From a virus, in the IMG/VR virus record IMGVR_UViG_3300017917_002765, positions 32,001-96,000 of that record: a DNA stretch of 64,000 nt. One strand, 5' to 3'. Positions within the stretch are counted from its first letter, which is position 1. Each line of letters begins with the position of its first letter. Of the stretch, positions 58 through 23,773 are shown piece after piece. The notes beneath the pieces are model-generated. The model ran no database searches. It saw only the letters and a program-made list of their open reading frames with translations, and had not been told where the DNA came from. Position numbers and translations under genes: made by a program.

Positions 58-129
58 CGGTCTATAAGGGAATCGAACCCTTACCACATCATAGACAGTG
101 ATGTATCCTAGCCATTGGACCAATAGACC
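58..129 (-). tRNA. tRNA-Asp(GTC)
   Basis: Acceptor GGTCTAT/ATAGACC; anticodon arm CATCA-CTGTCTA-TGATG; TTCGATT T-loop. Confidence 0.95.
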
Positions 130-139
130 GTATTAAAAG

Positions 140-211
140 TAGCCCCAACGGGAATCGAACCCGTCTTTTTAGGTTGAAAACCTAACGTCCTAACCGATAG
201 ACGATAGGGCC
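140..211 (-). tRNA. tRNA-Glu(TTC)
   Basis: Anticodon arm TTAGG-TTTTCAA-CCTAA; canonical cloverleaf. Confidence 0.95.
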
Positions 212-217
212 ATTTTG

Positions 218-290
218 TGGTGAGAAAGGGTGTCGAACCCTTATCTCTGGTTTTTCAGACCAGCGCATAGACCACCTTTGCTATCTCACC
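218..290 (-). tRNA. tRNA-Phe(GAA)
   Basis: Acceptor GGTGAGA/TCTCACC; anticodon arm CTGGT-CTGAAAA-ACCAG. Confidence 0.95.
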
Positions 291-302
291 ATATTTTAAA
301 AC

Positions 303-334
303 AAAAAAGCTTGGTCATTTCTGGCCAAGCTTTT
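303..334 (-). terminator. Attenuator terminator 1 (before the Phe/Glu/Asp tRNA operon)
   Basis: AAAAGCTTGGCCA-GAAA-TGACCAAGC-TTTTTT hairpin plus U-tract between leader ORF and first tRNA. Confidence 0.88.
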
Positions 335-357
335 CATCTATTTATTAAACTTTGAGT

Positions 358-450
358 TTACTTTTTAGACAATAGTTGACCACCTAGGCTTTTATCAGCC
401 TCGGCTGCGAATTCAAACGCAAAATCAAATATGTTAGCAAAAGTTCTCAT
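358..450 (-). CDS. Leader peptide 1, MRTFANIFDFAFEFAAEADKSLGGQLLSKK (Phe/Asp/Glu/Ala sensor)
   Basis: 30-codon ORF after AAAAACA; codons 8-19 are only F/D/E/A; TGGTCAA (376-382) can pair with terminator 5' arm TTGGCCA. Confidence 0.88.
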   Translation of the reverse strand: MRTFANIFDFAFEFAAEADKSLGGQLLSKK

Positions 451-496
451 TGTTTTTGTTTTTAATTAAATATCTACTTGTTTTAAAAAGTTATTG

Positions 497-527
497 CAAA
501 TGTACTAAGTATTTTTGAATTTGTCAA
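497..527 (-). promoter_or_regulatory. Bacteroidota sigma70-type promoter for leader 1
   Basis: TTGACA-N17-TACATTTG (-7 element TAnnTTTG). Confidence 0.75.
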
Positions 528-540
528 GTTTTTTGTAAAA

Positions 541-1572
541 TTATTTTAATATACCAACTAGAGTTGCAATCGAATTAACTAATTTTATATAAACACCACT
601 AGGTTGTGTATCAATATCTTCTATACTTTGACCAGCTAAATTATAATAATAAACTCTTTTAATATAATCATCAAACTTTACAGATACCACATTTGAATAT
701 ACAAAATTACCGTCAAAATCAACTTGTTTTAAACGATAATAATAAGTATTACCTTTTATAACTTCAAAATCATCAAAAGAATATGATTTTAAAGTACTAG
801 AGTTCCCATGACCATTAACCCATCCAACTAATTCAAAATAAGATGAATTCAAACTTCTTTGGATTTCAAAACCATTATTATTGACCTCAGAATTTGTTTT
901 CCAAGTTAAATGTGAATATTTATTTTCTATATTTTCAGCATTGAAAGATGAAAGACTTACAGGTAATGCTGTTCCTGAATTAATTAAAGTCCATTTACGA
1001 TTAGAAGCAAAACCTATGGTGTCTGTGGAAGAACCAATACTATATAAAGCTGTCGATGAATTTACCCAAACACTTGATGGATTATAATAATTTAAAACCA
1101 AATCATTGTAGTTATATGGTATATCATTTATATCATAAGTTAAAGTTACGGTAGCAACTGGTTTGGTTGTAAAATTTGATAAATCTATTGTCCAATATCT
1201 ATTAATACTACTAGAATTATAATACGAAGTATTTGATGTAACAGCTGTATCAACGTTAGAAAATTTTATTGAGCTTCCATCACCAGCATTTGTAATGTTT
1301 AAATAAATTGGTAAATAAACGCTTGAATATGATATAAATGGTACAATATATGTTCCTTTATTATTTTGTATATTCCATTCAACAAAACCACCCATTGTAT
1401 CTGGCACATAAAACCCACCACCAGATGAATAAATTGATGACACGCTTGTATCACAAACATAAACGTTACCACCAGATTTTAAAGTAATATAAGATTGGTT
1501 ATCTATAAAAATTGATTGTGCATTGATGAAAGCACAAATCAAAACAAACATAAATGTGATTAACTTTTTCAT
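541..1572 (-). CDS. Secreted protein with Bacteroidota T9SS-cargo-like Ig domain
   Basis: Signal peptide; LPVSLSSF...WKTNSEVNNNGFEIQRS...YYYRLKQVDFDG motif; C-terminal YNLAGQ...GVYI. Confidence 0.65.
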   Translation of the reverse strand: MKKLITFMFVLICAFINAQSIFIDNQSYITLKSGGNVYVCDTSVSSIYSSGGGFYVPDTMGGFVEWNIQNNKGTYIVPFISYSSVYLPIYLNITNAGDGSSIKFSNVDTAVTSNTSYYNSSSINRYWTIDLSNFTTKPVATVTLTYDINDIPYNYNDLVLNYYNPSSVWVNSSTALYSIGSSTDTIGFASNRKWTLINSGTALPVSLSSFNAENIENKYSHLTWKTNSEVNNNGFEIQRSLNSSYFELVGWVNGHGNSSTLKSYSFDDFEVIKGNTYYYRLKQVDFDGNFVYSNVVSVKFDDYIKRVYYYNLAGQSIEDIDTQPSGVYIKLVNSIATLVGILK

Positions 1573-1574
1573 AA

Positions 1575-2921
1575 TTAATTCCTAATAATTAATACGTGTA
1601 AGCTACCTTGTCTAGCAGCTGTATTAGCTGATGAAACGTTAGCACTAACACCAGCAGTATAAACGGTTCTAACGTCAATTGTGTGTGAACCAGCACTTAA
1701 AGCTTGAAATGATGTTAATGTCCATTGATTACCTGTATTTGTAACATTTGAGCCAGAACCTGAATTAGCCGCAGTAACTCTTGTATAACTACCATTTGTT
1801 GGATATGAGCCATCAATGAATATTGCAAAATCTAATGTAGAATACCCAGTACTAGATGTGCTGTTTGTATTAAATGTACCATCAGTATAAATCATAACAA
1901 AACAATTTGAAGGTATCGTAAGTGTTGTTGTTAGACCTGGTATTGTGGTAAATGTTGTTGTAGATGTTGTAACCAATAATGTAGAACTACCGTAAACTGA
2001 TGTTACTGAATTTCCAAGTGCAGACCATGATAAACCACCAGAACCATCATTTCTAAGAAAAGTATTTGCTGTGCCTTGAGCTGTTGGTAGCGTCATTGAA
2101 TATGAAGTTGTAGTTGTGCCACCGTTAATCGTTACGGTATTGCTATTGGTTGAATTAGCGAATCTTAAACTTCCATCAATAGCACTGGCATTATTACCTA
2201 ATATAAAACCTGTATAGTTAGGTGAAGCAGTAGAGGAAAATCTACCTAATTCTTTATTGGCCACCACAAAACCAAATGAATTGGTCCCAGACCTATAAAT
2301 GCCAGAGTTAGCGTCATTATTAAATCTAATAGCTGGTGTTCCTGTACCACCGTCATTAACTATAACCCCACTATTTGTTTTTATGGCTCCAACAACATCC
2401 AATTTAACACTTGGTGAAGTGGTGCCTATACCAACTGAAGTCCCATCATTATAAATGTTTGAATTGTTTAACACCCACTGAGTCCCATCCCAATATGTTG
2501 TATTACCAGTTGCAGCACCAGAACCTATTAAACCAGTAGCTCCTTGGTTACCCTGTGCACCAGTAGCTCCTTGATTACCCTGTGGGCCAGTAGGACCTTG
2601 ATTACCTGTGGGACCTTGTGGACCTGTAGGCCCCTGTGCACCTGTAGGACCTTGATTACCTGTAGGACCCTGTACACCTGTAGGACCTTGATTACCTGTG
2701 GGACCTTGTGCCCCAACATTTCCATTTATTATTGGTAATCTGATTACTTTTCCAGTATTTGTAACCCCAATGTATTGGGAGTCTAGACCACTTACACCTC
2801 TTATTGTTAAGTCTCCATTAATATCAAGTGTTGTTTGTGGTGAATTTGTGTTTATACCCACATTTTGAGCAAAAACATTAATCGTTAATAAAACGAAAAG
2901 GATTGATAAAATTTTTTTCAT
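1575..2921 (-). CDS. Collagen-repeat fibre or surface protein
   Basis: Signal peptide, NVGINT..P..TLDING repeats, (G-X-Y)n tract, BclA-like C-terminus. Confidence 0.75.
2524..2716 (-). repeat. 18-bp collagen tandem repeat (GPTGNQ)n
   Basis: Repeated cctgtaggaccttgatta-type units. Confidence 0.9.
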
Positions 2922-2962
2922 GTCTGATTTTTATCATAAGTATATTAAATAATTCAACTAAG

Positions 2963-3301
2963 TCAAATATTTGATATATTTTTATTAATAATTTTTTTTA
3001 ATTTTTTTTGAGTTAACAATTCTAATAAGACATCCCCATGACATGGTTTTGGTTTACAAAAACATCCAAGGGTTTTCCCTTCAAGTTCATCCAAAGAGTC
3101 CATTAACTCTGGTGTATTTAAAATGTATTCTTTATATTTTGAAATTGCCTCTTCTGATGTTTCTACAATTTCAGAAGCTAGTGTTTCTTTATCTCGTATT
3201 GTCGTGTATGGATTCCCCCATTTTGACCCCCTTCCAATATATACATCATATGATTGTTTGTTTATATTAACAACCTTTGTAACAGAATTTGTATTAACCA
3301 C
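2963..3301 (-). CDS. DUF4326 family protein
   Basis: YDVYIGRGSKWGNPY...LGCFCKPKPCHGDVL. Confidence 0.88.
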   Translation of the reverse strand: MVNTNSVTKVVNINKQSYDVYIGRGSKWGNPYTTIRDKETLASEIVETSEEAISKYKEYILNTPELMDSLDELEGKTLGCFCKPKPCHGDVLLELLTQKKLKKIINKNISNI

Positions 3302-3307
3302 TAAAAA

Positions 3308-3682
3308 TTATTTGTTTTTAGAAAATATCCAAGTGAAAAAAATATGAAAAATAAACGTAAATACTGGATAACACAATAATAACCATGGGTTTAATGTAGC
3401 AATCGTTAAAGATATTATTAAAGAAAATTCTCTAATTAATCCAAATAAATGCCAAGCATCTGTTAATGAAACAAAAATTGTTGTGCTTCCAATGAAAGCT
3501 TCACCCTGTTTTGGGTCCCCGTTTTTATATTTTCTTTTCCAAGAAGTTTTAGGATTCCAAAAATCACCTAAATCCTTAAAAATACTTTTTGAAAAATGAA
3601 ATTGTATTTTATCTTGAATTGCTTTACATATACCAGAAACAATTACAAAAAAGAATACCAAAATATATTGCCAAATTTCCAC
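3308..3682 (-). CDS. Hypothetical membrane protein
   Basis: Hydrophobic segments; SWKRKYKNGD..TDAWHLF. Confidence 0.65.
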   Translation of the reverse strand: MEIWQYILVFFFVIVSGICKAIQDKIQFHFSKSIFKDLGDFWNPKTSWKRKYKNGDPKQGEAFIGSTTIFVSLTDAWHLFGLIREFSLIISLTIATLNPWLLLCYPVFTFIFHIFFTWIFSKNK

Positions 3683-3688
3683 AATATT

Positions 3689-3964
3689 TTATTTTTTTAG
3701 ATATTCATTATATAATGTCCTTACAATCAAACCAATAAAACAAATCGCAAAGATGCAAATTGGCCAAATCCATGACATATTTTCTAACCATTGAAAATCT
3801 CCAGAATTTCTTTTTTCAATTGGTATAGAAATAAAAATTAACCATGGTGTCATCATCAATAAAAATATAGGTATCATTATTGATAAACCAATAAATGTTA
3901 CATTTGAACTTTTCTCACTAAAGAAAAAATATATAGATTCAATAAATTTTTTTTTAATTTTCAT
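3689..3964 (-). CDS. Hypothetical membrane protein
   Basis: Two hydrophobic segments; TATTTAT motif upstream. Confidence 0.55.
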   Translation of the reverse strand: MKIKKKFIESIYFFFSEKSSNVTFIGLSIMIPIFLLMMTPWLIFISIPIEKRNSGDFQWLENMSWIWPICIFAICFIGLIVRTLYNEYLKK

Positions 3965-4011
3965 AACGTATTTTTATAATAAATATTTTGATTAATAAAG
4001 AAAGTCTAAAG

Positions 4012-4093
4012 TAGGGATAGAGGGACTCGAACCCCCACGCCTTTCGGCACTACATCCTAAGTGTAGCGTGTCTACCAATTCCACCATATCCCC
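4012..4093 (-). tRNA. tRNA-Leu(TAG)
   Basis: CTACA-CTTAGGA-TGTAG; type II variable arm. Confidence 0.95.
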
Positions 4094-4149
4094 ATAGAGT
4101 GTAGTAGCTGGTACCTAGCTTGTGGTTACTACACATTTTATCCACTTTG

Positions 4150-4233
4150 TAGCCAAGGAGGGAATCGAACCCCCACGCCCTTTCGAGCACCAGATTTTGA
4201 GTCTGGCGTGTCTACCTGTTCCACCACTTGGCC
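4150..4233 (-). tRNA. tRNA-Leu(CAA)
   Basis: CCAGA-CTCAAAA-TCTGG; type II variable arm. Confidence 0.95.
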
Positions 4234-4309
4234 ATTTCGGAAGGCGTACTCATTAGAGATACTTCCGTCAGTTACGTTGCTTTCGCAAGAGGCTTTACTG
4301 AGCACCATG

Positions 4310-4395
4310 TACCGAGAGTGGGACTCGAACCCACACGACCTTTTAGGGTCACAGCATTTTAAGTGCTGCGTGTCTACCTGTTCCACCATCTCGGC
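4310..4395 (-). tRNA. tRNA-Leu(TAA)
   Basis: CAGCA-CTTAAAA-TGCTG; type II variable arm. Confidence 0.95.
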
Positions 4396-4404
4396 ATTAC
4401 GTTA

Positions 4405-4436
4405 CAAAGGTACAAATAATTATCTTATTTTGCAAA
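4405..4436 (-). promoter_or_regulatory. Internal promoter upstream of the three Leu tRNAs
   Basis: TTTGCA...TACCTTTG between tRNA-Val and tRNA-Leu(TAA). Confidence 0.55.
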
Positions 4437-4455
4437 TCCTATGCAACTTTTTTTG

Positions 4456-4540
4456 TAGGTCCACCCAGATTCGAACTGGGATTATACTTCTCGTCTCCAC
4501 TTTGTAAGAGTGGGATGTTTAGCCATTACACCATGGACCT
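4456..4540 (-). tRNA. tRNA-Val(TAC) with enlarged variable region
   Basis: Acceptor AGGTCCA/TGGACCT; CCACT-CTTACAA-AGTGG; 16-nt variable region. Confidence 0.88.
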
Positions 4541-4549
4541 ATTTTATTG

Positions 4550-4621
4550 AGTCCCCAATTGGATTTGAACCAATGTAAGAGATTTTGCAGACCTCTGCCT
4601 AAGCCACTCGACCATAGGGAC
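4550..4621 (-). tRNA. tRNA-Cys(GCA)
   Basis: GAGGT-CTGCAAA-ATCTC; U discriminator. Confidence 0.93.
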
Positions 4622-4623
4622 AT

Positions 4624-4654
4624 AAAAAAAGCCTATCTTTTTAGGATAGGCTTT
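4624..4654 (-). terminator. Attenuator terminator 2 (before the Cys/Val/Leu tRNA operon)
   Basis: AAAGCCTATC-CTAAAAA-GATAGGC-TTTTTTT. Confidence 0.9.
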
Positions 4655-4682
4655 CTAGTATTTTCAGTTTATGATTACTTAC

Positions 4683-4757
4683 TTAACAAGCAAAGCCCAC
4701 CCAGTCTGCTACTAGCAAACATAAGACAAGGACTAAATTTGTTAATGACGTTTTCAT
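4683..4757 (-). CDS. Leader peptide 2, MKTSLTNLVLVLCLLVADWVGFAC (Leu/Val/Cys sensor)
   Basis: Codons 8-16 are TTA GTC CTT GTC TTA TGT TTG CTA GTA; GGGTGGGCTTT (4692-4702) pairs with terminator 5' arm AAAGCCTATCC. Confidence 0.9.
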   Translation of the reverse strand: MKTSLTNLVLVLCLLVADWVGFAC

Positions 4758-4786
4758 TGTTTTTTGTCGTTTTTAATAAATATACA

Positions 4787-4817
4787 CAAAGGTACAAAAA
4801 GTTTTTCAATTTGTCAA
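4787..4817 (-). promoter_or_regulatory. Bacteroidota sigma70-type promoter for leader 2
   Basis: TTGACA-N17-TACCTTTG. Confidence 0.75.
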
Positions 4818-4857
4818 GTTTTTTAAAAGAAAAAATGTATTTATAGATAAAAAGTGT

Positions 4858-5601: not shown

Positions 5602-5638
5602 ACTTTACTTATCTAAACCCTTAGAATAATTTGTTACT

Positions 5639-5965: not shown

Positions 5966-5967
5966 GT

Positions 5968-8175: not shown

Positions 8176-8900
8176 TACGCTAATCTAAATGGTTTTAAGT
8201 ATTCTCTTAAAAAAGCATTTTTTTCTCCACCTATCTTATCTAACCAATGTTTATAATTTTGAGAATTTCTATTTTCCAATTCTTCCAATTGTTTTTCACT
8301 TGGTTTTCTTCTGCTATAAGGAAGTGTTTCTGGTACGAAATCTGGATAAATAGTTTTGTTGAAAACTCTCTCATCAACCAAAAACACAAATGCAGTCAAT
8401 TGATTACCCAAATCTGGTTCATAAAAAGTAGCAACTAATATGCCAGCATCGTAAAAAGATTTTAGATGTTTATTTAGCGTACCAGCACAAGTTTCAGAGT
8501 TGTTTGTGGTACCACCATTAAGGATAATAAATGTTTTGTCTTTTTGCGCCCACTTATCATATATTTTTTCTATTGAACCAGCACCCTTAACATTTTGTCC
8601 AAACTCAACAACAGCATGTCCAAATTGAATACCAGCGTGTATTGTACCACATAATTGATATGCGACTAAACCATACATACGATACTCTAAATATTTATCT
8701 GTTTTTCGTTGTAAAGAATTTGGTTTAACTTTACATTTACTTAAATGTTTAATAAACTCATCTTTAGTTATTTTTTTCTCAAAAAAATATTCTTCGGGAG
8801 TTAATTGTGAATCTGAATACCATTCACCCACATCTAAAACTCTAATATTACTATTTATACACCAATTATACGAAGTATTTATATTGTTATCATTTTCCAT
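8175..8900 (-). CDS. Peptidyl-tRNA hydrolase Pth2-like protein
   Basis: MYGLV...GIQFGHAVVE...W...KTFIIL...FYEPDLGNQLTA. Confidence 0.6.
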   Translation of the reverse strand: MENDNNINTSYNWCINSNIRVLDVGEWYSDSQLTPEEYFFEKKITKDEFIKHLSKCKVKPNSLQRKTDKYLEYRMYGLVAYQLCGTIHAGIQFGHAVVEFGQNVKGAGSIEKIYDKWAQKDKTFIILNGGTTNNSETCAGTLNKHLKSFYDAGILVATFYEPDLGNQLTAFVFLVDERVFNKTIYPDFVPETLPYSRRKPSEKQLEELENRNSQNYKHWLDKIGGEKNAFLREYLKPFRLA

Positions 8901-9640
8901 CCTATTGTATTTTTTGCGTTTATTCTTTTACCAATTATTTCTTTATAAGTTATAAAAACATTTTGATTGTTTTTTAATACATGGTATTGTAATTTATTAA
9001 TCTTACAAAATTCTTGTAATTTTTTAGCACCTAATATTTTATATTCATCTTTGTTAGGTGAGATTAATAAATAAGTTTTAACATCAGACCTAATTACTGA
9101 ATTGTTTGAACCTTTTCTTTTTTTACCATTTTCAATTATTTTTTTACGACCCTCATCTGTTAACTTTATTAAACCATTTTTATGTAAATTTTTAACAGAT
9201 TCTTTTTGTTTTAAACTTGTTGTTTTTCCATACATTGGGTTCTTTTCACCTTTTTTAGCTTCGCTTAATTTTTTTCTTGATTGTTCGGTTCTTTTATAAC
9301 CCACTTCACCTCCTTCAGTCATATTACACAACGTACCAGTTTCAATGTCAATTCTACCAATTAAATCGATTAATATTTTTTCATAAACTAAAGATTCATT
9401 TTCTGTTATTGATTCGATTAGTTTATATCTAATAGGTTCAAAACCATCGTTTAAAATTTTTCTTAATTTATTATAAAATAAACTATTTTTATTAACATTA
9501 ATTAAATGATGATTTATCCTATTTCTAGTTCCTTTACCAATGTACATTGGTTCATAATTAAACTTATATTTACCATACACGTATTCACCCTTTTTTCTTG
9601 GGTCTAAATAAACATAAACATAATATTTTTTTTCGTCCAT
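8879..9640 (-). mobile_element. Free-standing GIY-YIG/NUMOD3 homing endonuclease
   Basis: YYVYVYLDPR..YIGKG..R; LCNMTEGGE; KKLSEAKKGEKNPMYGK. Confidence 0.85.
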
Positions 9641-11171: not shown

Positions 11172-12221
11172 CTATGAAACAGGTAATTTGAAAAACATTT
11201 CTCTTACCTTGGTTGAAACATACTTGTTTACGTCCTTTGGTTCAAGATTATTTTTTACAAGAGTATCCGTTTCTTCCTTGATGATGTCCTCGTTAATCCA
11301 TCGCATAACTTCACCCATTTTCTTAACATCAACTGGTTCGTTATTAGGAAACACCTTTTCAATTGCTTGGTTGAAACGGCTTTCAGTTACAGCATAATCA
11401 ACAAATTCTCTAATTGAATTAATTTTTTCAACATCGACTTCAGCCAATTTCTTCACCTTACTTGAAGAGTGCTTGTCACCCTTTAGCTTGAAACGGTGAA
11501 CTACATTCTTATCAATACATGACCACACAATACCTTCACCGATACCTGAGAAACCAAACGCCTTGGCAACTGGGCATTCTTCCTCAACAGCTAGTGTCAA
11601 CTCACCCAACTTATTTTGAACCAATTCTGGACGGTTAAAATCGATATCAATGCTGTATGTAGGGAAATCATCAATATTATAAATACGGGCTTCTGGTGCT
11701 CTCAAATAAGTGTAATCAACCCAGTATGCTGATGGTTGAATTTCGGAACCTTCAATTGGGGACGGAGAAATCTTTACACCAAAGATAAAAAATGATTTTG
11801 GAAGATTGGTTATTCCAACACCCTTTTGGATATTGCCACCGCACCATTCACCGTAAATACTGATAGTGTTTTGAGTTGGGTCCACATAAGGGATTGTTTT
11901 ATCAATAACTTGTGCGAACAACTCTTGAAACACTGCTTTATTTGACTCAGCGAAAAACGCAAAACCAGCGTTGTCTTGTTCTGGTGTAATGATGTTTTCA
12001 CGTGACTGATACCACATACCGTCATTCTGATTGTAGCAAACACCAGCATTGGTCCCGTGGAGCTTTACCGTACCCTTAAAGGTAAGTGTAGGCTTTGTTC
12101 GTGTTGTGTCATAAACAGGTTCACCATTTTCAAGTAAACCAACAAAGTTGTATTGACGATTAATACCAGCAATTACGTTTCTGAATTGTTCAATACTAGG
12201 AAAAGAAATGTGTTTTTTCAT
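11172..12221 (-). CDS. RNA ligase, Rnl2 family
   Basis: KLHGTN motif I; YGEWCGG; GEGIVW; FKLKG. Confidence 0.85.
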   Translation of the reverse strand: MKKHISFPSIEQFRNVIAGINRQYNFVGLLENGEPVYDTTRTKPTLTFKGTVKLHGTNAGVCYNQNDGMWYQSRENIITPEQDNAGFAFFAESNKAVFQELFAQVIDKTIPYVDPTQNTISIYGEWCGGNIQKGVGITNLPKSFFIFGVKISPSPIEGSEIQPSAYWVDYTYLRAPEARIYNIDDFPTYSIDIDFNRPELVQNKLGELTLAVEEECPVAKAFGFSGIGEGIVWSCIDKNVVHRFKLKGDKHSSSKVKKLAEVDVEKINSIREFVDYAVTESRFNQAIEKVFPNNEPVDVKKMGEVMRWINEDIIKEETDTLVKNNLEPKDVNKYVSTKVREMFFKLPVS

Positions 12222-13734: not shown

Positions 13735-14691
13735 TTATAGCATTTTGTATAACGTTTTGTCGTCATAATTAAAGATGAAGTCTTGAACCGAAGCAATCTT
13801 ACCATCATTTAAACCGAAGTATAAACCAGTAAAATTCTTAACACCATACTTACCACACACATTAAATACAGCCTCAGCAAATCTCTTCTTCTCTTGTGGT
13901 GTGATGTTCTTTGGGCGTTTATCTTGTAACTCAACCCAAACATTATTCAACTTATCAACCAACACGTCATAGTTAACCTTTAACTTATACAACTCATCCT
14001 TACGGTCTGGGAATGTAGCAGCAAATTCTTCTATTTCGTTGGTTTTAACGATAGCTATGATGTTGTGTTCAGCTGTCTTTCCTTTCAAGTGGTGAACCGC
14101 AACATAAGCTGGGTTCTTTATCTTTACTCGGTTATGGTTAGCATCAACCACAACATAACCTTCATCGTGCCAAACCATGTTCTCAAACGTCTTCAATAGC
14201 GCACCAACGTTCTTGATGTTCAAGTCATATGCCTTAACTCGTGGAACACCCAAAGACTCAGCTATCGCTGTTAATTCGTCAAATGACACTTCTTCAAGTG
14301 TTTCAAGGTTACGAACTGTCAACAAAGACGCTGATGATTCACCGTGTGGTTTAACAACGATGTTATATGGGGTAGTCAATTCAAATACGTAAGTATAACC
14401 TTTAGTAAACTTAGATGCATCTAAACCATACTTATCCTTAACAGTTGTCCAGAATAGTTGGTTGAAGGTTGTACCCAACTTGTTGTTTACTTCACCTTCA
14501 CCTTCGGCAGTACCAGTGGTACCAGCATACCAAACGTTTTTATTCCAGTCGAAATAAACTTGTATACAAGAATTATGCACCAATATGTTATTAGCAAAAA
14601 AATTATTATGTGTTTTTGTTTGTATATCGTATCGTTTTGAATTGGAGTCAATCTTTTTAATTGATTTTATTTTAACCAGCTTATTTTCCAT
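13735..14691 (-). CDS. Split-intein C fragment (40 aa, ..VHN) fused to C-extein of an Rnl1-like RNA ligase
   Basis: YDIQTKTHNNFFANNILVHN|SC; FELTTPYN, EGYVV and RVKIK ligase motifs. Confidence 0.9.
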   Translation of the reverse strand: MENKLVKIKSIKKIDSNSKRYDIQTKTHNNFFANNILVHNSCIQVYFDWNKNVWYAGTTGTAEGEGEVNNKLGTTFNQLFWTTVKDKYGLDASKFTKGYTYVFELTTPYNIVVKPHGESSASLLTVRNLETLEEVSFDELTAIAESLGVPRVKAYDLNIKNVGALLKTFENMVWHDEGYVVVDANHNRVKIKNPAYVAVHHLKGKTAEHNIIAIVKTNEIEEFAATFPDRKDELYKLKVNYDVLVDKLNNVWVELQDKRPKNITPQEKKRFAEAVFNVCGKYGVKNFTGLYFGLNDGKIASVQDFIFNYDDKTLYKML

Positions 14692-15685: not shown

Positions 15686-16276
15686 TTATTTAGTAGTTAT
15701 TAAAACTTCATCACCCTCAGATAAATCCTCAACTTTACGATAACAAGATAACTTTGGTAACCAAACTCTGTGGTTTCCAGTTAATTTTATTGTTTCACCA
15801 TTTTCCATTTCTATTTCATACCAGTTGTTAATATTATTTTTAACAGAATGTGCCAGTATTTCATCAAAAACGATTTCGTTTTTTTCTATATCGTAAGATA
15901 ATACTTTACCAGAATATTTAGTATCACAAATTTCTTTAATACTTTTTTCACCAACTTCTGTTATTAGGATAGTTGTCTCATCAAGACAACCGTCCAATTT
16001 TTCAAGAACATGAGCAGTGTTCCAATCTATCTTGTGTGCGTTGCCTTCTTCTGAATTGAAAAATTTGGTGAACGCCAATGACATTACCTTCCAAGTATCT
16101 TTTTCAAGGACAAGTCCACGACATTCTTGAACTTCTGGCTTAGCCATAAGTGTTGGACTACATAATTGGTCATATTTCAACAATACTTTTGTATCATAAA
16201 CCCTAGTTTTAAGGTCAAATGCAAGTATGGTTTTAGCCAATCCGTTCTCTTTGATGTATTTTTGTATTGCTAACAT
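15686..16276 (-). CDS. Rnl1-like RNA ligase N-extein fused to split-intein N fragment
   Basis: ECRGLVL, KFFN, EKLDG|CL; intein block B IKLTGNHRVW. Confidence 0.9.
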   Translation of the reverse strand: MLAIQKYIKENGLAKTILAFDLKTRVYDTKVLLKYDQLCSPTLMAKPEVQECRGLVLEKDTWKVMSLAFTKFFNSEEGNAHKIDWNTAHVLEKLDGCLDETTILITEVGEKSIKEICDTKYSGKVLSYDIEKNEIVFDEILAHSVKNNINNWYEIEMENGETIKLTGNHRVWLPKLSCYRKVEDLSEGDEVLITTK

Positions 16277-16583: not shown

Positions 16584-16597
16584 GGTTAAAAATTTAG

Positions 16598-16670
16598 TAG
16601 TCCCAGAGGGATTCGAACCCCCATAAAGAGCTTAGAAGGCTCTTGTCCTAATCCATTGAACGATGGGACC
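16598..16670 (-). tRNA. tRNA-Arg(TCT), solitary copy
   Basis: AGAGC-CTTCTAA-GCTCT; near-identical to 22201-22271. Confidence 0.95.
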
Positions 16671-17060: not shown

Positions 17061-17990
17061 TTACTTCACAATTTCTGTTACAAAACCAGTAATAAAAAAT
17101 GGTTTAACATCTTGCCATTTGGTGATATCATTCGACAACACTGGTTTACCGCCATCTGGGTTTACAGCAATCGTAACGTGAGGAATAGCGTTTTTAGATG
17201 GATACCCTTCAACTTGTACTGCCATAGCCATATCAGACAGACCAACTTTTGTCACCTTCAAAATGACTTCCTTGCCAATGTCAGTCTTATCCTTTAACTC
17301 ACCCATTGTTATTGTCATGTGGTGGGCATAAGTCTTCCAACCATCTGGAATTTCCAATACAAATCGCTCAAGCAATTTATTGTGTGAAGCCTTATCCAGA
17401 AGAACACAAGAATACAGTACGTTTGATTTATTATACATGTCTTTAGAATCCAAAACACTTTTAAGGGTAAGAGGTCCTTGTGCTGTGTGACTAGCAATCA
17501 TAGCTTCAATCCTTTCTAACGGAACGCCATGAGTGTTTCTAGCAGCCAATTGTGTAGCCTCAAGTCCAGCGGTACCAACATCAACAAATTTTATGTTGTT
17601 ATCAGCAAAACCCATTTCAAGAGCCGCTACAACATATGCTTTTGGTTCGTTTTGCTTAATGTTTGTGTTGTCAACAATAACTGGTGTAATCCCAGCTTTC
17701 ATCGAAGTAATTGCATCTTTTAAATTTTGTGAGTGAACCTTGCTTAGAGCACTAAAATCACCAGTAGCAATCATCTTAGCAAAAAACTCAAGATAATCAC
17801 CAGATTTCTCAATAACATCGTCTGTTGAATGAATTTTACCTTGACCTACAAGTGATTTAGCCTTGGTTGATTTTCCAGCTCCAGGTATCCCACGCATAAC
17901 AATAAGCTCTTGGTTAGGTCTGGTTACAGACACGCCCAATGAGTTTTTTTCTGAACCCTCACGCAGTATTTCTTTGATTTTTTCTTTCAT
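17061..17990 (-). CDS. Polynucleotide kinase (AAA_33) fused to 2H cyclic phosphodiesterase (RNA end healing)
   Basis: MRGIPGAGKST; IVDNTN; RNTHGVP; HHMTI and PHVTI. Confidence 0.82.
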   Translation of the reverse strand: MKEKIKEILREGSEKNSLGVSVTRPNQELIVMRGIPGAGKSTKAKSLVGQGKIHSTDDVIEKSGDYLEFFAKMIATGDFSALSKVHSQNLKDAITSMKAGITPVIVDNTNIKQNEPKAYVVAALEMGFADNNIKFVDVGTAGLEATQLAARNTHGVPLERIEAMIASHTAQGPLTLKSVLDSKDMYNKSNVLYSCVLLDKASHNKLLERFVLEIPDGWKTYAHHMTITMGELKDKTDIGKEVILKVTKVGLSDMAMAVQVEGYPSKNAIPHVTIAVNPDGGKPVLSNDITKWQDVKPFFITGFVTEIVK

Positions 17991-18354: not shown

Positions 18355-18721
18355 TTATTTCCATTTTTTCACCATTTCTATCTATTAATATGTATTCACA
18401 CTTTATTAAACCAAACTTATCTAAATGGTCTAACACTTCATTGGCCGTAAAGCATGAGCAAGAGTAAATATCAAATTGAAACATTGGAGGAGAGTATTTT
18501 TCCCAAATGTGTATTGAGGCATGTGAAGTGGCTAACGTTACCGTTCCAGTTAAACCCTCATTTCCTTCCTCAGAAACATAAACTGAGGTTGGCCCAGCCA
18601 CAACAACCATTCTAACTTTTTCAACTAACTCTGTAAACCATTTATTTAAAACATCAACTTCTGATGGCGGATTTTTAACGTATCCTTTAACGATTAAGTG
18701 AAGGTGATTTGGAACAAACAT
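18329..18721 (-). CDS. speD: S-adenosylmethionine decarboxylase proenzyme
   Basis: GLTGTVTLATSHASIHIW...FDIYSC. Confidence 0.8.
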   Translation of the reverse strand: MFVPNHLHLIVKGYVKNPPSEVDVLNKWFTELVEKVRMVVVAGPTSVYVSEEGNEGLTGTVTLATSHASIHIWEKYSPPMFQFDIYSCSCFTANEVLDHLDKFGLIKCEYILIDRNGEKMEIIENGSRGK

Positions 18722-18766
18722 TCTGAATTTTACAAATAAATATGTTGTTTATTAGAAAAATAATTA

Positions 18767-19366
18767 TTAATTATCTTCAACACTTACAAGTTCTATTATG
18801 TTAGGATTGTAAACAATAATGTGGTTACCCTCACCTTGATGTCTTGGTACGATTATACCATCTATACCCATCTTAACCATATTTCTAACATATTCAACTG
18901 GTTCGTATCGATAAAATTCAATCCATATTTGTTGAGCCAAATCTTTTTCAGTATCATTATAATCTATTGAACTATCTACAGCCATTGTTAGCCCTTTATA
19001 TGGGTTTATATCAAAATTTTGAGCAGTAGCTTTCCAATCTGGTGCCATACGCATCACTTTGGTTGTGAATGCTTTCCATTTCGATGGAACCAATGGTGTC
19101 ATATCCATCAACTTTCTTGGGGAGAGTTTTACAGTGTATATTTTATTGCCGTAAACTTCAGCTTCTTCTTTAACCGTTGTAAAATAAATTCCAGGTCCTT
19201 CTTGGTCCATAGCTTCAGCTCCACCTACAAACTCATCTGAAAAACGTTTAATTTCAGCTTTGGTTCCGTGGAATACAGTATAAGAGCCACCTTTGGTGAT
19301 TTCATGAATAAGTGATTCTCGAAGTCTTTTAGTTATTAAGTCTTTCATTTTAATATACGTCATCAC
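18767..19366 (-). CDS. ADP-ribosyltransferase-like protein (ART-PolyVal-like)
   Basis: VFHGT...GPGIYFT...AEVYG...GIDGII...IVYNP. Confidence 0.65.
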   Translation of the reverse strand: MMTYIKMKDLITKRLRESLIHEITKGGSYTVFHGTKAEIKRFSDEFVGGAEAMDQEGPGIYFTTVKEEAEVYGNKIYTVKLSPRKLMDMTPLVPSKWKAFTTKVMRMAPDWKATAQNFDINPYKGLTMAVDSSIDYNDTEKDLAQQIWIEFYRYEPVEYVRNMVKMGIDGIIVPRHQGEGNHIIVYNPNIIELVSVEDN

Positions 19367-20516: not shown

Positions 20517-22042
20517 TAGATTAAATTAAGTTTCCTTCTAAGCCTTTCTTTTAACTCTTCTTTAGATAACTCATTAAATTCTTTTTCAAGACCTAATACT
20601 TTTGCAATATCGTTTGGTGTTACACGTGAACCATGAGAATGGCTTCCCATTCCTTCATCAATAGTCTTCATTTTCTGATTAACATAATCAATAAGATAAT
20701 TTGTAACCTTTGAAACCTCCTCAAATACCTTAATCATATTTTTTTCATCAGCACCCCATAAGACGGTATAATTTAAGGATGTTGTTTTTAAATCAAAACC
20801 AAAAGCATACATAAACATCCAAGCACTTAATTCTGCTTGTTGTTCAACAACATCTCTAGAATTTTTTCCAATGAAGAAAGAACCAGAAGCTCCACCTTTG
20901 GAAGACAGGTATGACTGATGTAACAATTCATGAGTTATTTCGTGAGCAAGTGTTTTGGTTAAACCAACATCATTCCCTTCATTTTTCAATATCTTTATCA
21001 ATCCATTTGCACTAACACCTCTAGAACCACCTAAGTCATCAACCAATTCTGTTTTAATACCATTATCATTACAAAATTCTAATAAGGATTTATATATTGG
21101 TCTTACATCATCAGAAATCATATTTTCTTCAAACCATTTAATGTTTTTTGAAGCTTCTTCTGCGGACTTAATATAATCTGTTTTCCCTTCTATTTGTGTT
21201 GTATCAGAAACATCATAAACCGCAACTAACTTAAATTTATTAGCCTGTACGCTACCTTTTGTTATTGCGTCCAACTTAAATTTTTCATTTGGCGTTAAAT
21301 CGTCCCTTTTTATTTTTCCTACCTTTTTAAAAAAGTCTTGTTTTTCTTTTTCAACTTGTTCTTTTGATTTATATAGTTTCTTACCTTCAGGTGCCCAAAT
21401 TGCAATAGGTTTTGCATTAGGATTAACATTTCTATTATATTTGTCTAACCAATCTAGTTTCCCATAAACCTTTTTGGCATTTGGTTTTTGTAAATAAATC
21501 AAAAGCGTATTAGCTAATGAGAATCCTCTTCCTTGTGCGGCTCTAATATCAATTAGCTTTCTCATTATATCCTTAAATTGCTCATCATCTTTGATATTTA
21601 CAAGCATATTTCTAAAGTTATTTAACTTCGTTTTAATCGCTTCTTCATCTTCCTTGGTGAAATTTAATTCTGGGATTTGAGTTAAGTCTTCTGTTTCAAT
21701 TGTTTGAATTAATCTGTCAATGTCGGTGATTAATTTTTTAGCATCTTCACCACTAACACTTAAATAATCGTTTAGATGGTTTATTGCGGATTTTATATCA
21801 TCTATAGTAGTTTTGTTTTCAAACCAAAAATAAGTTTTAATTAATTTATTATATTTTCCGCCATTATTACCAAGAATAGATTTTCCAGCATCACTAAATA
21901 TTAAAGCATTTTCTTCTTCTGTACTAGCTTTTAACATAATAATTGGAATTTCTCTTCCGTCTTTTGTTTTAAATAAGCTTTTTACTAATTTAAAATCTTC
22001 AAAAATTAACTTTTTCATATTTTTTTTTATAATAAATATCAC
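20516..22042 (-). CDS. ArdC-like ssDNA-binding domain plus zincin metallopeptidase (polyvalent protein)
   Basis: FSLANTLLIYLQKPNA..W..YNR.V; VYDVSDT; TLAHEITHELL..EQQAE. Confidence 0.78.
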   Translation of the reverse strand: MIFIIKKNMKKLIFEDFKLVKSLFKTKDGREIPIIMLKASTEEENALIFSDAGKSILGNNGGKYNKLIKTYFWFENKTTIDDIKSAINHLNDYLSVSGEDAKKLITDIDRLIQTIETEDLTQIPELNFTKEDEEAIKTKLNNFRNMLVNIKDDEQFKDIMRKLIDIRAAQGRGFSLANTLLIYLQKPNAKKVYGKLDWLDKYNRNVNPNAKPIAIWAPEGKKLYKSKEQVEKEKQDFFKKVGKIKRDDLTPNEKFKLDAITKGSVQANKFKLVAVYDVSDTTQIEGKTDYIKSAEEASKNIKWFEENMISDDVRPIYKSLLEFCNDNGIKTELVDDLGGSRGVSANGLIKILKNEGNDVGLTKTLAHEITHELLHQSYLSSKGGASGSFFIGKNSRDVVEQQAELSAWMFMYAFGFDLKTTSLNYTVLWGADEKNMIKVFEEVSKVTNYLIDYVNQKMKTIDEGMGSHSHGSRVTPNDIAKVLGLEKEFNELSKEELKERLRRKLNLI

Positions 22043-22105
22043 AATTTATTTAGTTAATTCATTTATGTATGCAATTAAATGTGGAAACATATTGGTTATT
22101 TAAAG

Positions 22106-22194
22106 CGGAGAATTGGTTAATCGAAAACCATGCGGTTTTTGGCCGCACCCATTGTTTAGCAAACAAGTCTGGGACCCTGCCCAGTTAATTCTCC
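22106..22194 (-). tRNA. tRNA-Ser(GCT)
   Basis: Acceptor GGAGAAT/ATTCTCC; loop TTGCTAA; long variable arm. Confidence 0.88.
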
Positions 22195-22200
22195 ATATTG

Positions 22201-22271
22201 TAGTCCCAGAGGGACTCGAACCCCCATAAAGAGCTTAGAAGGCTCTTGTCCTTCCGTTGAACGATGGGACT
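22201..22271 (-). tRNA. tRNA-Arg(TCT)
   Basis: AGAGC-CTTCTAA-GCTCT. Confidence 0.95.
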
Positions 22272-22278
22272 ATTATAG

Positions 22279-22358
22279 TACAGACGGAGGGACTCGAACC
22301 CCCATTTACAACTCCATTTACGGTTACTAAGTTCGTAGCTTAGCTCGGTTACGTCTGC
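22279..22358 (-). tRNA. Non-canonical tRNA-Arg(ACG): no D-arm, 23-nt variable region
   Basis: Acceptor GCAGACG/CGTCTGT; 8-nt linker; CTAAG-CTACGAA-CTTAG; GGGGG-TTCGAGT-CCCTC. Confidence 0.7.
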
Positions 22359-22363
22359 ATTTG

Positions 22364-22433
22364 TTGCGTGGAACGGAGCCGAACCGTCTTACTCTGCCTT
22401 ATGAGAGCTGAGCCTTTTCCAATAAGCCACGCA
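22364..22433 (-). tRNA. tRNA(CAT) Met/Ile2 with reduced D-arm
   Basis: Acceptor TGCGTGG/CCACGCA; loop CTCATAA; T-loop TTCGGCT. Confidence 0.72.
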
Positions 22434-22438
22434 ATGTG

Positions 22439-22509
22439 CTCAGATGTAGGGAATCGAACCCTATTCCTACGAGTTAACAGCTCGTTGCTCGCCATTGAGC
22501 TTCATCTGA
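22439..22509 (-). tRNA. tRNA-Asn(GTT)
   Basis: ACGAG-CTGTTAA-CTCGT; canonical. Confidence 0.93.
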
Positions 22510-22515
22510 ATGTTG

Positions 22516-22600
22516 CGGATTGGATAGGATTCGAACCTATGTGAACCTTACGGCCTTCGTGTTAACAGCACGCTGCTCTGACCAACTGAGCTACCAATCC
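22516..22600 (-). tRNA. tRNA-Asn(GTT) with long variable arm
   Basis: CGTG-CTGTTAA-CACG; variable hairpin GGCC-GTAA-GGTT. Confidence 0.88.
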
Positions 22601-22608
22601 ATATTTTG

Positions 22609-22684
22609 TCTTGAGGGTGGGACTCGAACCCACACGTGCGAAGATATAAGCTTCCCAGTCTGACCAGTTGACTATTACCTCAAG
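22609..22684 (-). tRNA. tRNA-Ile(TAT)
   Basis: Acceptor CTTGAGG/CCTCAAG; GAAG-CTTATAT-CTTC. Confidence 0.8.
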
Positions 22685-22693
22685 AATTTAAAG

Positions 22694-22777
22694 TTGTGAG
22701 GGTGGGAGTCGAACCCACCTATAGAAATTAATCTCCAGTGTATCAGACTGGTGCCCAAACCGCTAGACCACCTCACA
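22694..22777 (-). tRNA. tRNA-Ile(GAT) with enlarged variable region
   Basis: CCAGT-CTGATAC-ACTGG; 16-nt variable region. Confidence 0.87.
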
Positions 22778-22890
22778 ATAATTTATTTTAATTTCCTAAA
22801 CCATAAACCGCCCCAGTTTATTATTATATTCACTAGCATCCATCTCTGTGGAGACCAAACAATTGTTTGGTGACGGTTAAAGTTTAAAAG

Positions 22891-22963
22891 GGTGCTATAG
22901 GAGTTTCGAAATCCCGACCTCTGGTTCCACAAACCAGCGCTCTGCCTCTGAGCTAATAGCACC
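22891..22963 (-). tRNA. tRNA-His(GTG)
   Basis: G-1; CTGGT-TTGTGGA-ACCAG. Confidence 0.9.
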
Positions 22964-23054
22964 ATGTTTGAAAGTGTAATTTACTGCACTTTTCATGTTA
23001 AATAAGCTTTTTATATCAGTTATTTAGTCTGATAGTGTAATTTATTACACTTTG

Positions 23055-23128
23055 GGTGTAGGACGATAGTCGAACTCGCAACTACAAGGCTCACAACCTA
23101 GCGTTATACCGTTAAATCTACCTACACC
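23055..23128 (-). tRNA. tRNA-His(GTG), divergent second copy
   Basis: G-1; CTAGG-TTGTGAG-CCTTG; mismatches in the arms. Confidence 0.8.
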
Positions 23129-23205
23129 ATATAAGACCACCCCGTAAGTGGTCAGGACAAACACGTCTTTGTCTGGACAGCGATATTTCCCTTTGGGAAT
23201 ACTAG

Positions 23206-23292
23206 AGGAAGGTGGAGGACCCGACCCCCTGACGGCTCATCACCGCCACCCTAATTTTCAAGACTAGTTTTGCTCCATGCAAGGCACCTTCC
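23206..23292 (-). tRNA. tRNA-Ser(TGA), probable 8/4 fold
   Basis: 8-bp acceptor GGAAGGTG/CACCTTCC; 4-bp T-stem; loop CTTGAAA; long variable arm. Confidence 0.78.
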
Positions 23293-23297
23293 ATTAG

Positions 23298-23380
23298 CAC
23301 ACTCGGTAGAAGTCGAATCTACAACCATTTAATCCTAAGAACAGATTTGGAGTCTGTTGGTCACGCCCATGAGCGAGTGT
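23298..23380 (-). tRNA. Non-canonical tRNA-Trp(CCA)
   Basis: ACAGA-CTCCAAA-TCTGT; small D-arm; 18-nt variable region. Confidence 0.75.
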
Positions 23381-23385
23381 ATATG

Positions 23386-23456
23386 CACACCTGCTTCGAC
23401 TTGAACGAAGAACGTCCGTTTTGGAGACGGAAATTTTACCATTAAACTACAGATGT
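23386..23456 (-). tRNA. tRNA-Trp(CCA)
   Basis: TCCGT-CTCCAAA-ACGGA; canonical size. Confidence 0.9.
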
Positions 23457-23463
23457 ATAATAA

Positions 23464-23482
23464 CCAATATGTCAAATAACGT
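23464..23482 (-). promoter_or_regulatory. boxA-like antitermination element
   Basis: ACGTTATTTGACATATTGG between the attenuator and the first tRNA; related ACGTTCTTT at 29330-29338 and 30248-30256. Confidence 0.45.
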
Positions 23483-23511
23483 CTGACCAATATTTTATTT
23501 GGTGGTCAACC

Positions 23512-23553
23512 AAAAATAAAAAACCCGACCTAGATTTTTATCTGAGTCGGGTT
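23512..23553 (-). terminator. Attenuator terminator 3 (before the 13-tRNA operon)
   Basis: AACCCGACTCAGAT-AAAA-ATCTAGGTCGGG-TTTTTTATTTTT. Confidence 0.9.
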
Positions 23554-23576
23554 CTTCTTTTTTATTTGTTTGTTTC

Positions 23577-23678
23577 TTAAAAATCACATAAGAAACTTAC
23601 AGACATAGCCGACTCAAATGGATTGCTATTGCGTCTCCACATGCTAATCGAATTAATATGTATGTTTATGTTTCTCAT
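23577..23678 (-). CDS. Leader peptide 3, MRNINIHINSISMWRRNSNPFESAMSVSFLCDF (Trp/Ser/His/Ile/Asn/Met/Arg sensor)
   Basis: First 19 codons use only the 7 amino acids of the downstream tRNAs; TTTGAGTCGG (23609-23618) pairs with terminator 5' arm CCGACTCAGA. Confidence 0.93.
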   Translation of the reverse strand: MRNINIHINSISMWRRNSNPFESAMSVSFLCDF

Positions 23679-23742
23679 TGTTTTTGTTTTGTGGGTTTCC
23701 CCTGTTTTTTATTAAATATGTGCTTTTTCTTAAAAGTTAATG

Positions 23743-23773
23743 CAAATGTACTAACTATTTTTCAATTTGTCAA
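23743..23773 (-). promoter_or_regulatory. Bacteroidota sigma70-type promoter for leader 3
   Basis: TTGACA-N17-TACATTTG. Confidence 0.75.

Follow-up and report, generated by a model that had tools for sequence, protein, structure and literature searches.

How, and when, does a bacteriophage express the tRNA genes that it carries? The reason for the existence of such genes has been debated for fifty years, and to our knowledge their regulation is essentially unknown. The question is raised by the viral record IMGVR_UViG_3300017917_002765 of IMG/VR, in which tRNA operons are preceded by short open reading frames (ORFs) that specify the amino acids carried by the tRNAs behind them. The stretch analyzed here, termed the window, comprises 64,000 nt (bases 32001 to 96000 of one 136,575-bp contig), and positions refer to the window unless marked as genome positions. 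The evidence suggests that these units are ribosome-mediated (leader-peptide) transcription attenuators gating the tRNA operons, a reading to which we assign a probability of about 0.8.

The contig has a G+C content of 31% and contains approximately 40 tRNA genes and a transfer-messenger RNA (tmRNA) gene, and 80 of its 88 ORFs of ≥150 amino acids (aa) lie on the minus strand. Its nearest cultured relative is Cellulophaga phage phi4:1 (Lightbulbvirus), with a DNA ligase identity of 50%; a DNA similarity search against sequenced phages gave matches at the tRNA level only. A pond metagenome run contains nearly identical DNA and may be the source of the contig, a lake-water run contains a smaller share (0.23) of the sampled words, and no RNA run was listed for this DNA. 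Gene starts are A/T rich and G poor and have no Shine-Dalgarno sequence, and promoters have the form TTGACA-N17-TAnnTTTG, which we take to be the −33/−7 promoter type of Bacteroidota. Only six promoters with the full consensus occur in the 136.6-kb genome, of which four precede the leader ORFs described below, one precedes a Met-tRNA cluster, and one precedes a protein gene.

Layout, codon content, and predicted folds of the leader units

Three units within the window share a minus-strand layout of consensus promoter, ORF of 24 to 33 codons, intrinsic terminator, and tRNA genes (Table 1). The first-pass annotation of the window had described this arrangement, and each element was located where it had been placed. 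It had also predicted that a further leader, rich in G/K/P/Q/T/Y, would be found elsewhere in the genome, and such a leader is present at genome 28641-28540, 3.4 kb before the window start. In all four units, the leader ORF starts 45 to 65 nt past the promoter and ends ahead of the terminator, and in the three units of the window its start lies in an A-rich context (AAAAACA-ATG). The terminators consist of a hairpin (free energy change [ΔG] of −14 to −21) and a run of ≥5 U and end 3 to 63 nt before the first tRNA. In none of the four units did a genome promoter scan find a consensus TTGACA-N-TAnnTTTG promoter in the stretch from terminator to first tRNA, because so little space separates the two. 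The sequence upstream of the leader starts is 65 to 70% A (real genes, 50%; all ATGs, 37%); in the case of leader 1, the 20 nt upstream are 65% A and resemble those of real genes. On the basis of their sequence, the leaders are presumably translated.

The four leader/operon amino acid sets partition all 20 amino acids. The F/D/E/A set of operon 1 is completed by a tRNA-Ala(TGC) gene located right outside the window (genome 31948-31874), and operon 4 encodes, in order, Pro, Gln, an odd tRNA-like gene, Tyr, Thr, Gly, Gly, Lys, Lys, and Lys. The anticodon loops of Ile(TAT) and Arg(ACG) in operon 3 were read by eye, ARAGORN assigning both differently, and three operon 3 genes fall below the Rfam cutoff.

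The first-pass annotation had further claimed that a block of codons in each ORF spells the amino acids of its own operon's tRNAs, and the residue counts agree. When counting begins at codon 2 and stops at the last codon at which the antiterminator (see below) is still intact, own-set residues make up 14/19, 10/15, 16/16, and 16/16 positions in leaders 1, 2, 3, and 4, respectively (binomial P of 2.7e-6, 9.1e-6, 5.9e-9, and 1.2e-8 against the phage's own amino acid frequencies). The leader-by-operon count matrix is diagonal, with only 0 to 3 residues in off-diagonal cells. Among the 563 ATG ORFs of 20 to 45 codons in the genome, leader 4 ranks first, leader 3 second, and leader 1 joint third; leader 2, with a set of just three amino acids, does not stand out by raw count.

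A comparison by hand extended the match to codons and anticodons. In leader 3, all 18 control codons can be read by operon anticodons through plain wobble, and the pairings include ATA with Ile(TAT), ATT with Ile(GAT), CGC with Arg(ACG), AGA with Arg(TCT), TCG with Ser(TGA), and AGC with Ser(GCT). Plain wobble accounts for 16 of 17 control codons in leader 4, for 11 of 19 in leader 1, and for 7 of 15 in leader 2, and four-way reading by U at anticodon position 34 (U34) adds one, three, and three more, respectively; the remaining five codons in each of leaders 1 and 2 are noncognate.

RNA folding is consistent with a switch between exclusive structures. In the predicted fold of the free leader RNA, the antiterminator strand is paired with control codons lying between codons 6 and 15, and the terminator is formed, in all six units analyzed (four of this phage and two of phi4:1); in unit 1, the pairing partner is codons 7 to 10. 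As modeled, this is the classical OFF state with pairings 1:2 plus 3:4. When a ribosome mask was applied at equilibrium, the antiterminator appeared in the minimum-free-energy structure for leaders 2 and 4 only, and a truncated, cotranscriptional model was therefore used, in which the RNA is folded up to the terminator loop and the ribosome masks 12 nt past the first base of the aminoacyl (A) site. In this model, the antiterminator forms with the A site on any control codon and is lost 1 to 3 codons past the block, including in both phi4:1 units. Of 18 distinct units, 17 have this limit at the end of the block, the antiterminator starting one ribosome footprint beyond the last control codon; the exception is a leader of type 1 in a relative (L091), which shows no clear drop. 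For unit 2, the model keeps the antiterminator helix intact only with the A site at or before codon 15-16.

The duplex between leader and terminator arm is 7 to 14 bp long in all 24 units compared, with ΔG of −8.9 to −17.7 kcal/mol. Both the truncated folds and the duplex analysis thus bear out the proposal that a segment 3' of the codon block is complementary to the 5' arm of the terminator. For unit 1, the per-sequence duplex analysis chose an alternative segment, nt 45 to 55 (406-396). In silico, the pairings of protector, antiterminator, and terminator exclude one another, and the position of the ribosome decides among them.

These features suggest the following mechanism. Host RNA polymerase would start at the strong consensus promoter, and a ribosome would translate the short leader. 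If all control codons were decoded fast, the ribosome would cover the antiterminator strand, allowing the terminator to fold and halting transcription before the tRNAs. Scarcity of aminoacyl-tRNA for any control codon would instead stall the ribosome within the block, melting the protector pairing between the block and the antiterminator strand and freeing this strand just past the ribosome edge. The freed strand would capture the 5' arm of the terminator, and polymerase would continue into those genes whose tRNAs decode the stalled codons. Each unit would then be a multivalent negative-feedback sensor with 3 to 7 amino acid specificities, the four units together covering all 20. In the folding model, read-through would respond to decoding speed.

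Conservation in relatives and in other lineages

Relatives were retrieved from IMG/VR as contigs matching a 426-aa neighbor protein and an 18-nt promoter pattern; three larger contigs (G002 to G004) were scanned for tRNAs and their operon regions taken, and a ligase alignment added 80 loci. All four leader types recur together with their operons in relatives. Among 12 distinct relatives, the leader 3 block contains 189 in-set residues of 204, versus 73 of 170 in the remaining peptide; 16 of its 17 positions vary, and of the 13 variable positions from codon 5 onwards, 12 admit in-set residues only. Judged from these alignments, the composition of the leader blocks is conserved and the order of residues is not.

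The 3' half of the leader ORF changes jointly with the terminator arm, and five self-consistent antiterminator/arm pairs were found: GAGTCGG/CCGACTC, GAATCGG/CCGATTC, GGGTCGG/CCGACCC, GAATCAGG/CCTGATTC, and GGTCAAGG/CCTTGACC. A swap test and per-sequence duplexes were used here because the MAFFT alignment offsets the terminator arms of two leader 3 subgroups by one column. Pairing with the own arm had a mean of −10.9, versus −7.8 with other arms, and none of 10,000 permutations was as good, a result that is inflated by kinship among rows. By unit, the own arm ranks first in 6 of 24 cases and is weaker than the mean of the others in 4 of 24.

Lineages with a different division of the tRNAs provide a further comparison. 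Phage phi4:1 (locus L092) has two units. Unit A (27066-27190) encodes the peptide MKIQRLHLQELEQPIISGGTGV, with the block QRLHLQELEQP, and is followed by Pro, Glu, Gln, His, Leu, Leu, and Arg. Unit B (28026-28164) starts with GTG, encodes the peptide VQLTKTGITVIDKTKGARAYLGDTVIG with the block TKTGITVIDKTKGARAY, and lies ahead of Ala, Lys, Ile, Gly, Met, Asp, Thr, Val, Arg, Met, and Tyr. In a third group (L147, L148, L150, and L151), the leader is 42 aa long, is rich in P/D/Y/A/G/M, and is followed by Pro, Asp, Tyr, Pro, Ala, Tyr, Gly, Gly, and Met. When log-odds were calculated for seven leaders against seven operon sets from the three lineages, the own set was best in 7 of 7. Leader content therefore tracks tRNA content across three different partitions, which is the covariation that the first-pass annotation had suggested looking for in related phages. 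The phi4:1 helicase as a query returned phi4:1 itself only, and of 18 loci matching the phi4:1 promoter pattern, tRNAs follow the promoter only in phi4:1.

Two small annotated coding sequences of phi4:1 coincide with these elements. gp075 (L092 27990-28109) starts upstream, inside the promoter, and overlaps leader B, and gp076 (L092 30118-30219), situated ahead of the annotated tRNA-Ser, overlaps, as read by eye, a Ser(TGA)-like tRNA; this first Ser of the operon end is called by neither the record annotation nor ARAGORN. Both gp075 and gp076 are probably not proteins.

Several other candidates were rejected. In six loci (L074, L052, L065, L071, L054, and L035), a small ORF and a terminator lie ahead of tRNAs, but sigma-70-type promoters follow the terminator, and these are therefore not attenuators. 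Two others (L016 and L076) have a promoter immediately before the tRNAs and no leader. Two of 20 rows produced by the automatic pipeline (L118 and L113 at 6575) were judged false positives on the basis of long gaps and a mismatch in composition.

Contrary observations and rival explanations

Taken together, the topology, the register of the antiterminator limit, composition, pairing, covariation, and the fourth leader support, in silico, the original interpretation of the units as ribosome-mediated attenuators. One part of it, that the phage makes tRNAs only when ribosomes stall, is too strong and cannot be demonstrated, given that there is basal read-through, transcription from upstream, and tRNA genes that stand singly outside the operons.

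A number of observations weigh against attenuation as proposed. First, at equilibrium the terminator is favored in leaders 1 and 3 wherever the ribosome is placed, so that the switch must be kinetic (cotranscriptional), as for trpL, and in 4 of 24 units the duplex with the own arm is weak until the arm is lengthened by 2 nt. Second, the match between leader and operon is imperfect: the five noncognate residues in each of leaders 1 and 2 lie mostly at codons 2 to 7, the Phe-Glu-Asp operon of G002 lacks tRNA-Ala yet its leader retains Ala codons, the Ser, Ser, Asn, Trp, and Phe tRNAs at the operon end of phi4:1 unit B are not represented in the leader, and the L150 leader has just 15 of 24 residues in set. 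Third, terminator and tRNAs are not always adjacent. About 200 nt with extra TAnnTTTG motifs separate one terminator from tRNA-Phe in G003, and in L004, L007, L009, and L091 the terminator is approximately 0.8 kb away from the tRNAs (785 nt in L091). In three of these loci (L004 11776-11907, L007 11467-11598, and L009 2825-2956), an ORF resembling HNH homing endonucleases, as read by eye, is inserted behind the leader terminator and ahead of the first tRNA.

Fourth, the units are not insulated from their surroundings. There is no terminator between upstream genes and leader promoters, and the leader terminators may therefore also end transcripts of upstream genes. ORFs begin 47 and 63 nt downstream of operons 2 and 3, respectively, and no terminator-like site was detected after either operon, so that the operons run on into protein genes and read-through should continue into them. 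Finally, a conserved 18-nt motif in the spacer between terminator and first tRNA is not explained by attenuation. Only two copies with ≤3 mismatches exist in the genome, after the terminators of units 3 and 4 (the second at genome 28426-28443), and the motif also occurs in the relatives L088 and L150. It was weighed as a second promoter, an idea that was dropped since it sits a mere 14 nt from tRNA-Trp; a role as a processing site or as a binding site is possible.

The run-on into protein genes raises the question of whether the attenuators are real but mainly serve downstream genes, or mainly sense amino acid starvation, with the tRNAs as passengers. Stalling reads aminoacyl-tRNA, and a lack of tRNA is consequently indistinguishable from a lack of amino acid. 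Leader content nevertheless follows the tRNA set, not downstream proteins, in all three partitions, codon choice mirrors individual isoacceptors in the comparison by hand, and downstream genes vary between lineages. We therefore regard this explanation as unlikely.

A generic switch of translation status or timing, in which any slow or absent translation of the leader opens the terminator and codon identity is irrelevant, would fit the geometry, which alone would answer a general slowdown of elongation, e.g., under ribosome-targeting stress; the strong host-type promoters likewise suggest early expression. It fails on the diagonal composition (P down to 5.9e-9), on the within-set substitutions, and on the covariation with tRNA content, and the predicted fold without a ribosome is protector plus terminator, i.e., OFF. 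Its probability appears low.

That the small ORFs encode functional peptides, each a separate small gene with its own terminator, is suggested by leader 2 (MKT..LVLVLCLLV), which resembles a signal peptide with a lipobox-like Cys, and by the annotation of gp075 and gp076 as coding sequences within the phi4:1 tRNA cluster. The blocks keep composition rather than residue order, however, the C-terminal halves shift with the terminator arm and keep no peptide motif, all four peptides spell the tRNAs of their own operon, and the four units have no consensus TTGACA-N-TAnnTTTG promoter past the terminator and before the tRNAs; we consider it very improbable. Chance or artefact, with terminators merely ending upstream gene clusters and ORFs without meaning, is the least credible explanation of all: upstream genes do lack their own terminator ahead of the leader promoters, and small ORFs with terminators precede promoters in unrelated groups (L074, L052, L065, and L054) that are not attenuators, but here the promoter lies upstream of both ORF and terminator, and the statistics, conservation, compensatory changes, and successful prediction of the fourth leader are all contrary.

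Ribosome-mediated attenuation is thus preferred, which leaves the question of its trigger. Because stalling reports aminoacyl-tRNA, amino acid starvation would also induce the operons, futilely. During infection, tRNA rather than amino acid is more plausibly the limiting factor, and the natural trigger may be loss of host tRNAs. Anticodon nuclease attack or tRNA decay could cause such a loss, for which tRNA repair genes between operons 2 and 3 give a circumstantial hint.

Neighboring genes, known systems, and implications

The repair-type genes comprise RNA ligases, a kinase-phosphodiesterase protein, and an ADP-ribosyltransferase (Table 1), and a lone tRNA-Arg(TCT) gene lies among them (16597-16670). 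The set is a circumstantial indication that tRNA damage matters to the phage. A GIY-YIG/NUMOD3 endonuclease is encoded at 8879-9640.

Table 1. Positions of the leader units and of associated features (window positions unless marked as genome)
Feature	Position	Strand	Details
Unit 1 promoter	497..527	minus	TTGACA 527-522, 17-nt spacer, TACATTTG 504-497
Leader ORF 1	358..450	minus	30 aa, MRTFANIFDFAFEFAAEADKSLGGQLLSKK*; control block rich in F/D/E/A
Unit 1 antiterminator 5' strand	371..381	minus	leader nt 70-80; predicted to pair with terminator 5' arm (truncated folds)
Unit 1 intrinsic terminator	298..335	minus	13-bp stem, GAAA loop, U-run; hairpin ΔG −14.6; ends 8 nt before tRNA-Phe
tRNA operon 1	57..290	minus	Phe(GAA) 290-217, Glu(TTC) 211-139, Asp(GTC) 129-57
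Unit 2 promoter	4787..4817	minus	TTGACA 4817-4812, 17-nt spacer, TACCTTTG 4794-4787
Leader ORF 2	4683..4757	minus	24 aa, MKTSLTNLVLVLCLLVADWVGFAC*; control block rich in L/V/C
Unit 2 antiterminator 5' strand	4689..4701	minus	leader nt 57-69; predicted duplex 11 bp, ΔG −17.7
Unit 2 intrinsic terminator	4622..4656	minus	end of U-run adjoins tRNA-Cys
tRNA operon 2	4011..4621	minus	Cys(GCA), Val(TAC), Leu(TAA), Leu(CAA), Leu(TAG)
Unit 3 promoter	23743..23773	minus	TTGACA 23773-23768, 17-nt spacer, TACATTTG 23750-23743
Leader ORF 3	23577..23678	minus	33 aa, MRNINIHINSISMWRRNSNPFESAMSVSFLCDF*; codons 2-19 are R/N/I/H/S/M/W only
Unit 3 antiterminator 5' strand	23602..23619	minus	leader nt 60-77; predicted duplex 14 bp, ΔG −17.4; compensatory changes in relatives
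Unit 3 intrinsic terminator	23518..23557	minus	hairpin ΔG −21.0 and U-run
Spacer motif, 18 nt	23464..23481	minus	between terminator and first tRNA; conserved in alignment
tRNA operon 3	22105..23456	minus	about 13 genes: Trp(CCA), 88-nt type-II-like CCA tRNA, Ser(TGA), His (two), Ile(GAT), Ile(TAT), Asn (two), CAT, Arg(ACG), Arg(TCT), Ser(GCT)
Unit 4 leader ORF	genome 28540-28641	minus	peptide MKTTTTYTGKQYPQGKQGRVGLGVCMSLHKSWS; same promoter, and a terminator
RNA ligase	11172-12221	minus	PF09414
T4 Rnl1-like ligase interrupted by intein	13735-14691 and 15686-16276, among the coordinates of the set	minus	PF09511 and intein/Hint; ligase at 15686-16276
Kinase and 2',3'-phosphodiesterase protein	17061-17990	minus	tRNA-ligase type
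ADP-ribosyltransferase	18767-19366	minus	ART-PolyVal
tRNAs with long variable regions	4455-4540, 22515-22600, 22693-22777, 22278-22358; genome 27203-27293, 27870-27955		

The tRNA genes themselves include unusual members. The normal tRNA-Trp gene is directly followed by a tRNA-like gene of 88 nt (23297-23384, minus strand) that has the anticodon CCA and a long variable arm; the best Rfam match of the latter gene is tRNA-Sec, below the cutoff, and two CCA tRNAs also occur in L005, L062, and L064. Val, Asn, Ile, Arg, Lys, and Thr tRNAs of 81 to 91 nt have extended variable regions, which is unusual for such specificities. Operon 4 contains a tRNA-like gene with an 8-nt anticodon loop, and another tRNA-like gene is ambiguous (sites at genome 28172-28259 and 30423-30508), appearing, depending on settings, as Gln with an intron, Asp(ATC), or a TTA “stop” tRNA. 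Three relatives (L007 at 5955, L010 at 4477, and L012 at 5295) have a tRNA whose anticodon is CTA and which may be an amber suppressor.

The consensus promoter before the Met-tRNA cluster (genome 61385) drives a conserved leader RNA of approximately 270 nt (29125-29385, minus strand), followed by three tRNAs (29121-28862), the middle one being Met (CAT). In relatives, this leader opens with an apparent ORF beginning MGSA, the start of which is replaced by ATA here, and it is therefore probably conserved at the RNA level. Rfam at E ≤ 1 matched only tRNAs in this region.

The proposed mechanism would be that of trpL, hisL, and ilvL applied to tRNA genes. Among enterobacterial leaders, which also include trpL, hisL, leuL, and pheL, those of ilvGMEDA (Ile/Leu/Val) and thrL (Thr/Ile) are multivalent. 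The phage units resemble these enterobacterial leaders in having an apparently translated leader with regulatory codons, a terminator before the first regulated gene, and the pairings 1:2, 2:3, and 3:4; as in those leaders, a stalled ribosome would select the antiterminator, and one leader would sense several amino acids. They differ in that the element is viral, the regulated genes encode tRNAs rather than biosynthetic enzymes, up to 7 to 10 specificities would be sensed by one leader, and the background is of Bacteroidota type, with −33/−7 promoters and no Shine-Dalgarno sequence.

Two other systems monitor tRNAs. The pheM leader upstream of pheST, which encodes the phenylalanyl-tRNA synthetase of Escherichia coli, likewise exerts leader-peptide attenuation on a component of the translation apparatus and reads the charging of tRNA-Phe; unlike the phage units, it is cellular, targets a synthetase protein gene, and senses one amino acid. 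T-box elements bind uncharged tRNA directly, have no ORF, and control synthetase, biosynthesis, or transport genes. They share with the phage units a terminator/antiterminator switch that reports the state of a specific tRNA and lack the leader ORF. Rfam cmscan at the gathering score over window positions 1 to 32000 found only tRNA and tmRNA, with no match to a leader family or a T-box.

The nearest published case is the trn operon of Anabaena sp. PCC 7120, a long inducible tRNA array that is, in the available parts of the reports, controlled at the promoter by the repressor TrcR (PMC8421152, PMC10272220). As described there, the two systems have in common supernumerary tRNA genes, which in Anabaena are silent by default and turned on when translation is impaired; the Anabaena array differs in its control by a protein repressor and in being chromosomal or plasmid borne. 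The terms “leader,” “attenuat,” and “terminator” do not occur in the main text of PMC10272220. Phage tRNAs have also been presented, in the portions available of two further studies, as counterdefense against tRNA-cleaving immunity (PMC10264068, PMC11555353). Like those tRNAs, the ones described here would replace host tRNAs lost in infection, a possible physiological rationale; the same portions treat which tRNAs phages carry and escape from nucleases, not transcriptional control. The main text of a survey of premature terminators (PMC2965389) contains neither tRNA genes nor phage. Full-text literature searches returned no description of leader-peptide or attenuator control of tRNA genes, and the earlier statement that none exists for tRNA genes or phages has held in these searches.

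If the interpretation is correct, the output of a leader-peptide attenuator would here, for the first time, be the molecule sensed, giving direct feedback rather than feedback via amino acid synthesis, and the attenuator would be the most multivalent known, with up to 7 to 10 specificities per leader. The idea is directly testable, as phi4:1 and its host are in culture, and the units offer a compact design for codon-specific biosensors. It would also provide a rule for annotation: small ORFs within phage tRNA clusters, e.g., phi4:1 gp075, may be leaders rather than proteins.

Such phages would track the tRNA pool of the host and replenish it when needed, codon by codon, which fits recent work on tRNA-cleaving antiphage defense. 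A broader proposal, which we advance tentatively and at somewhat less than even odds, is that the phage maintains a homeostat for the whole tRNA pool. Four stall sensors would divide the 20 amino acids, each inducing the block of tRNAs that relieves its own stall, and together with the RNA ligase and kinase-phosphodiesterase repair genes they would form an on-demand countermeasure to loss of host tRNAs through anticodon nucleases or infection-induced decay. This system may be widespread and plastic among phages of Bacteroidota, its leaders being respelled whenever the tRNAs are reshuffled.

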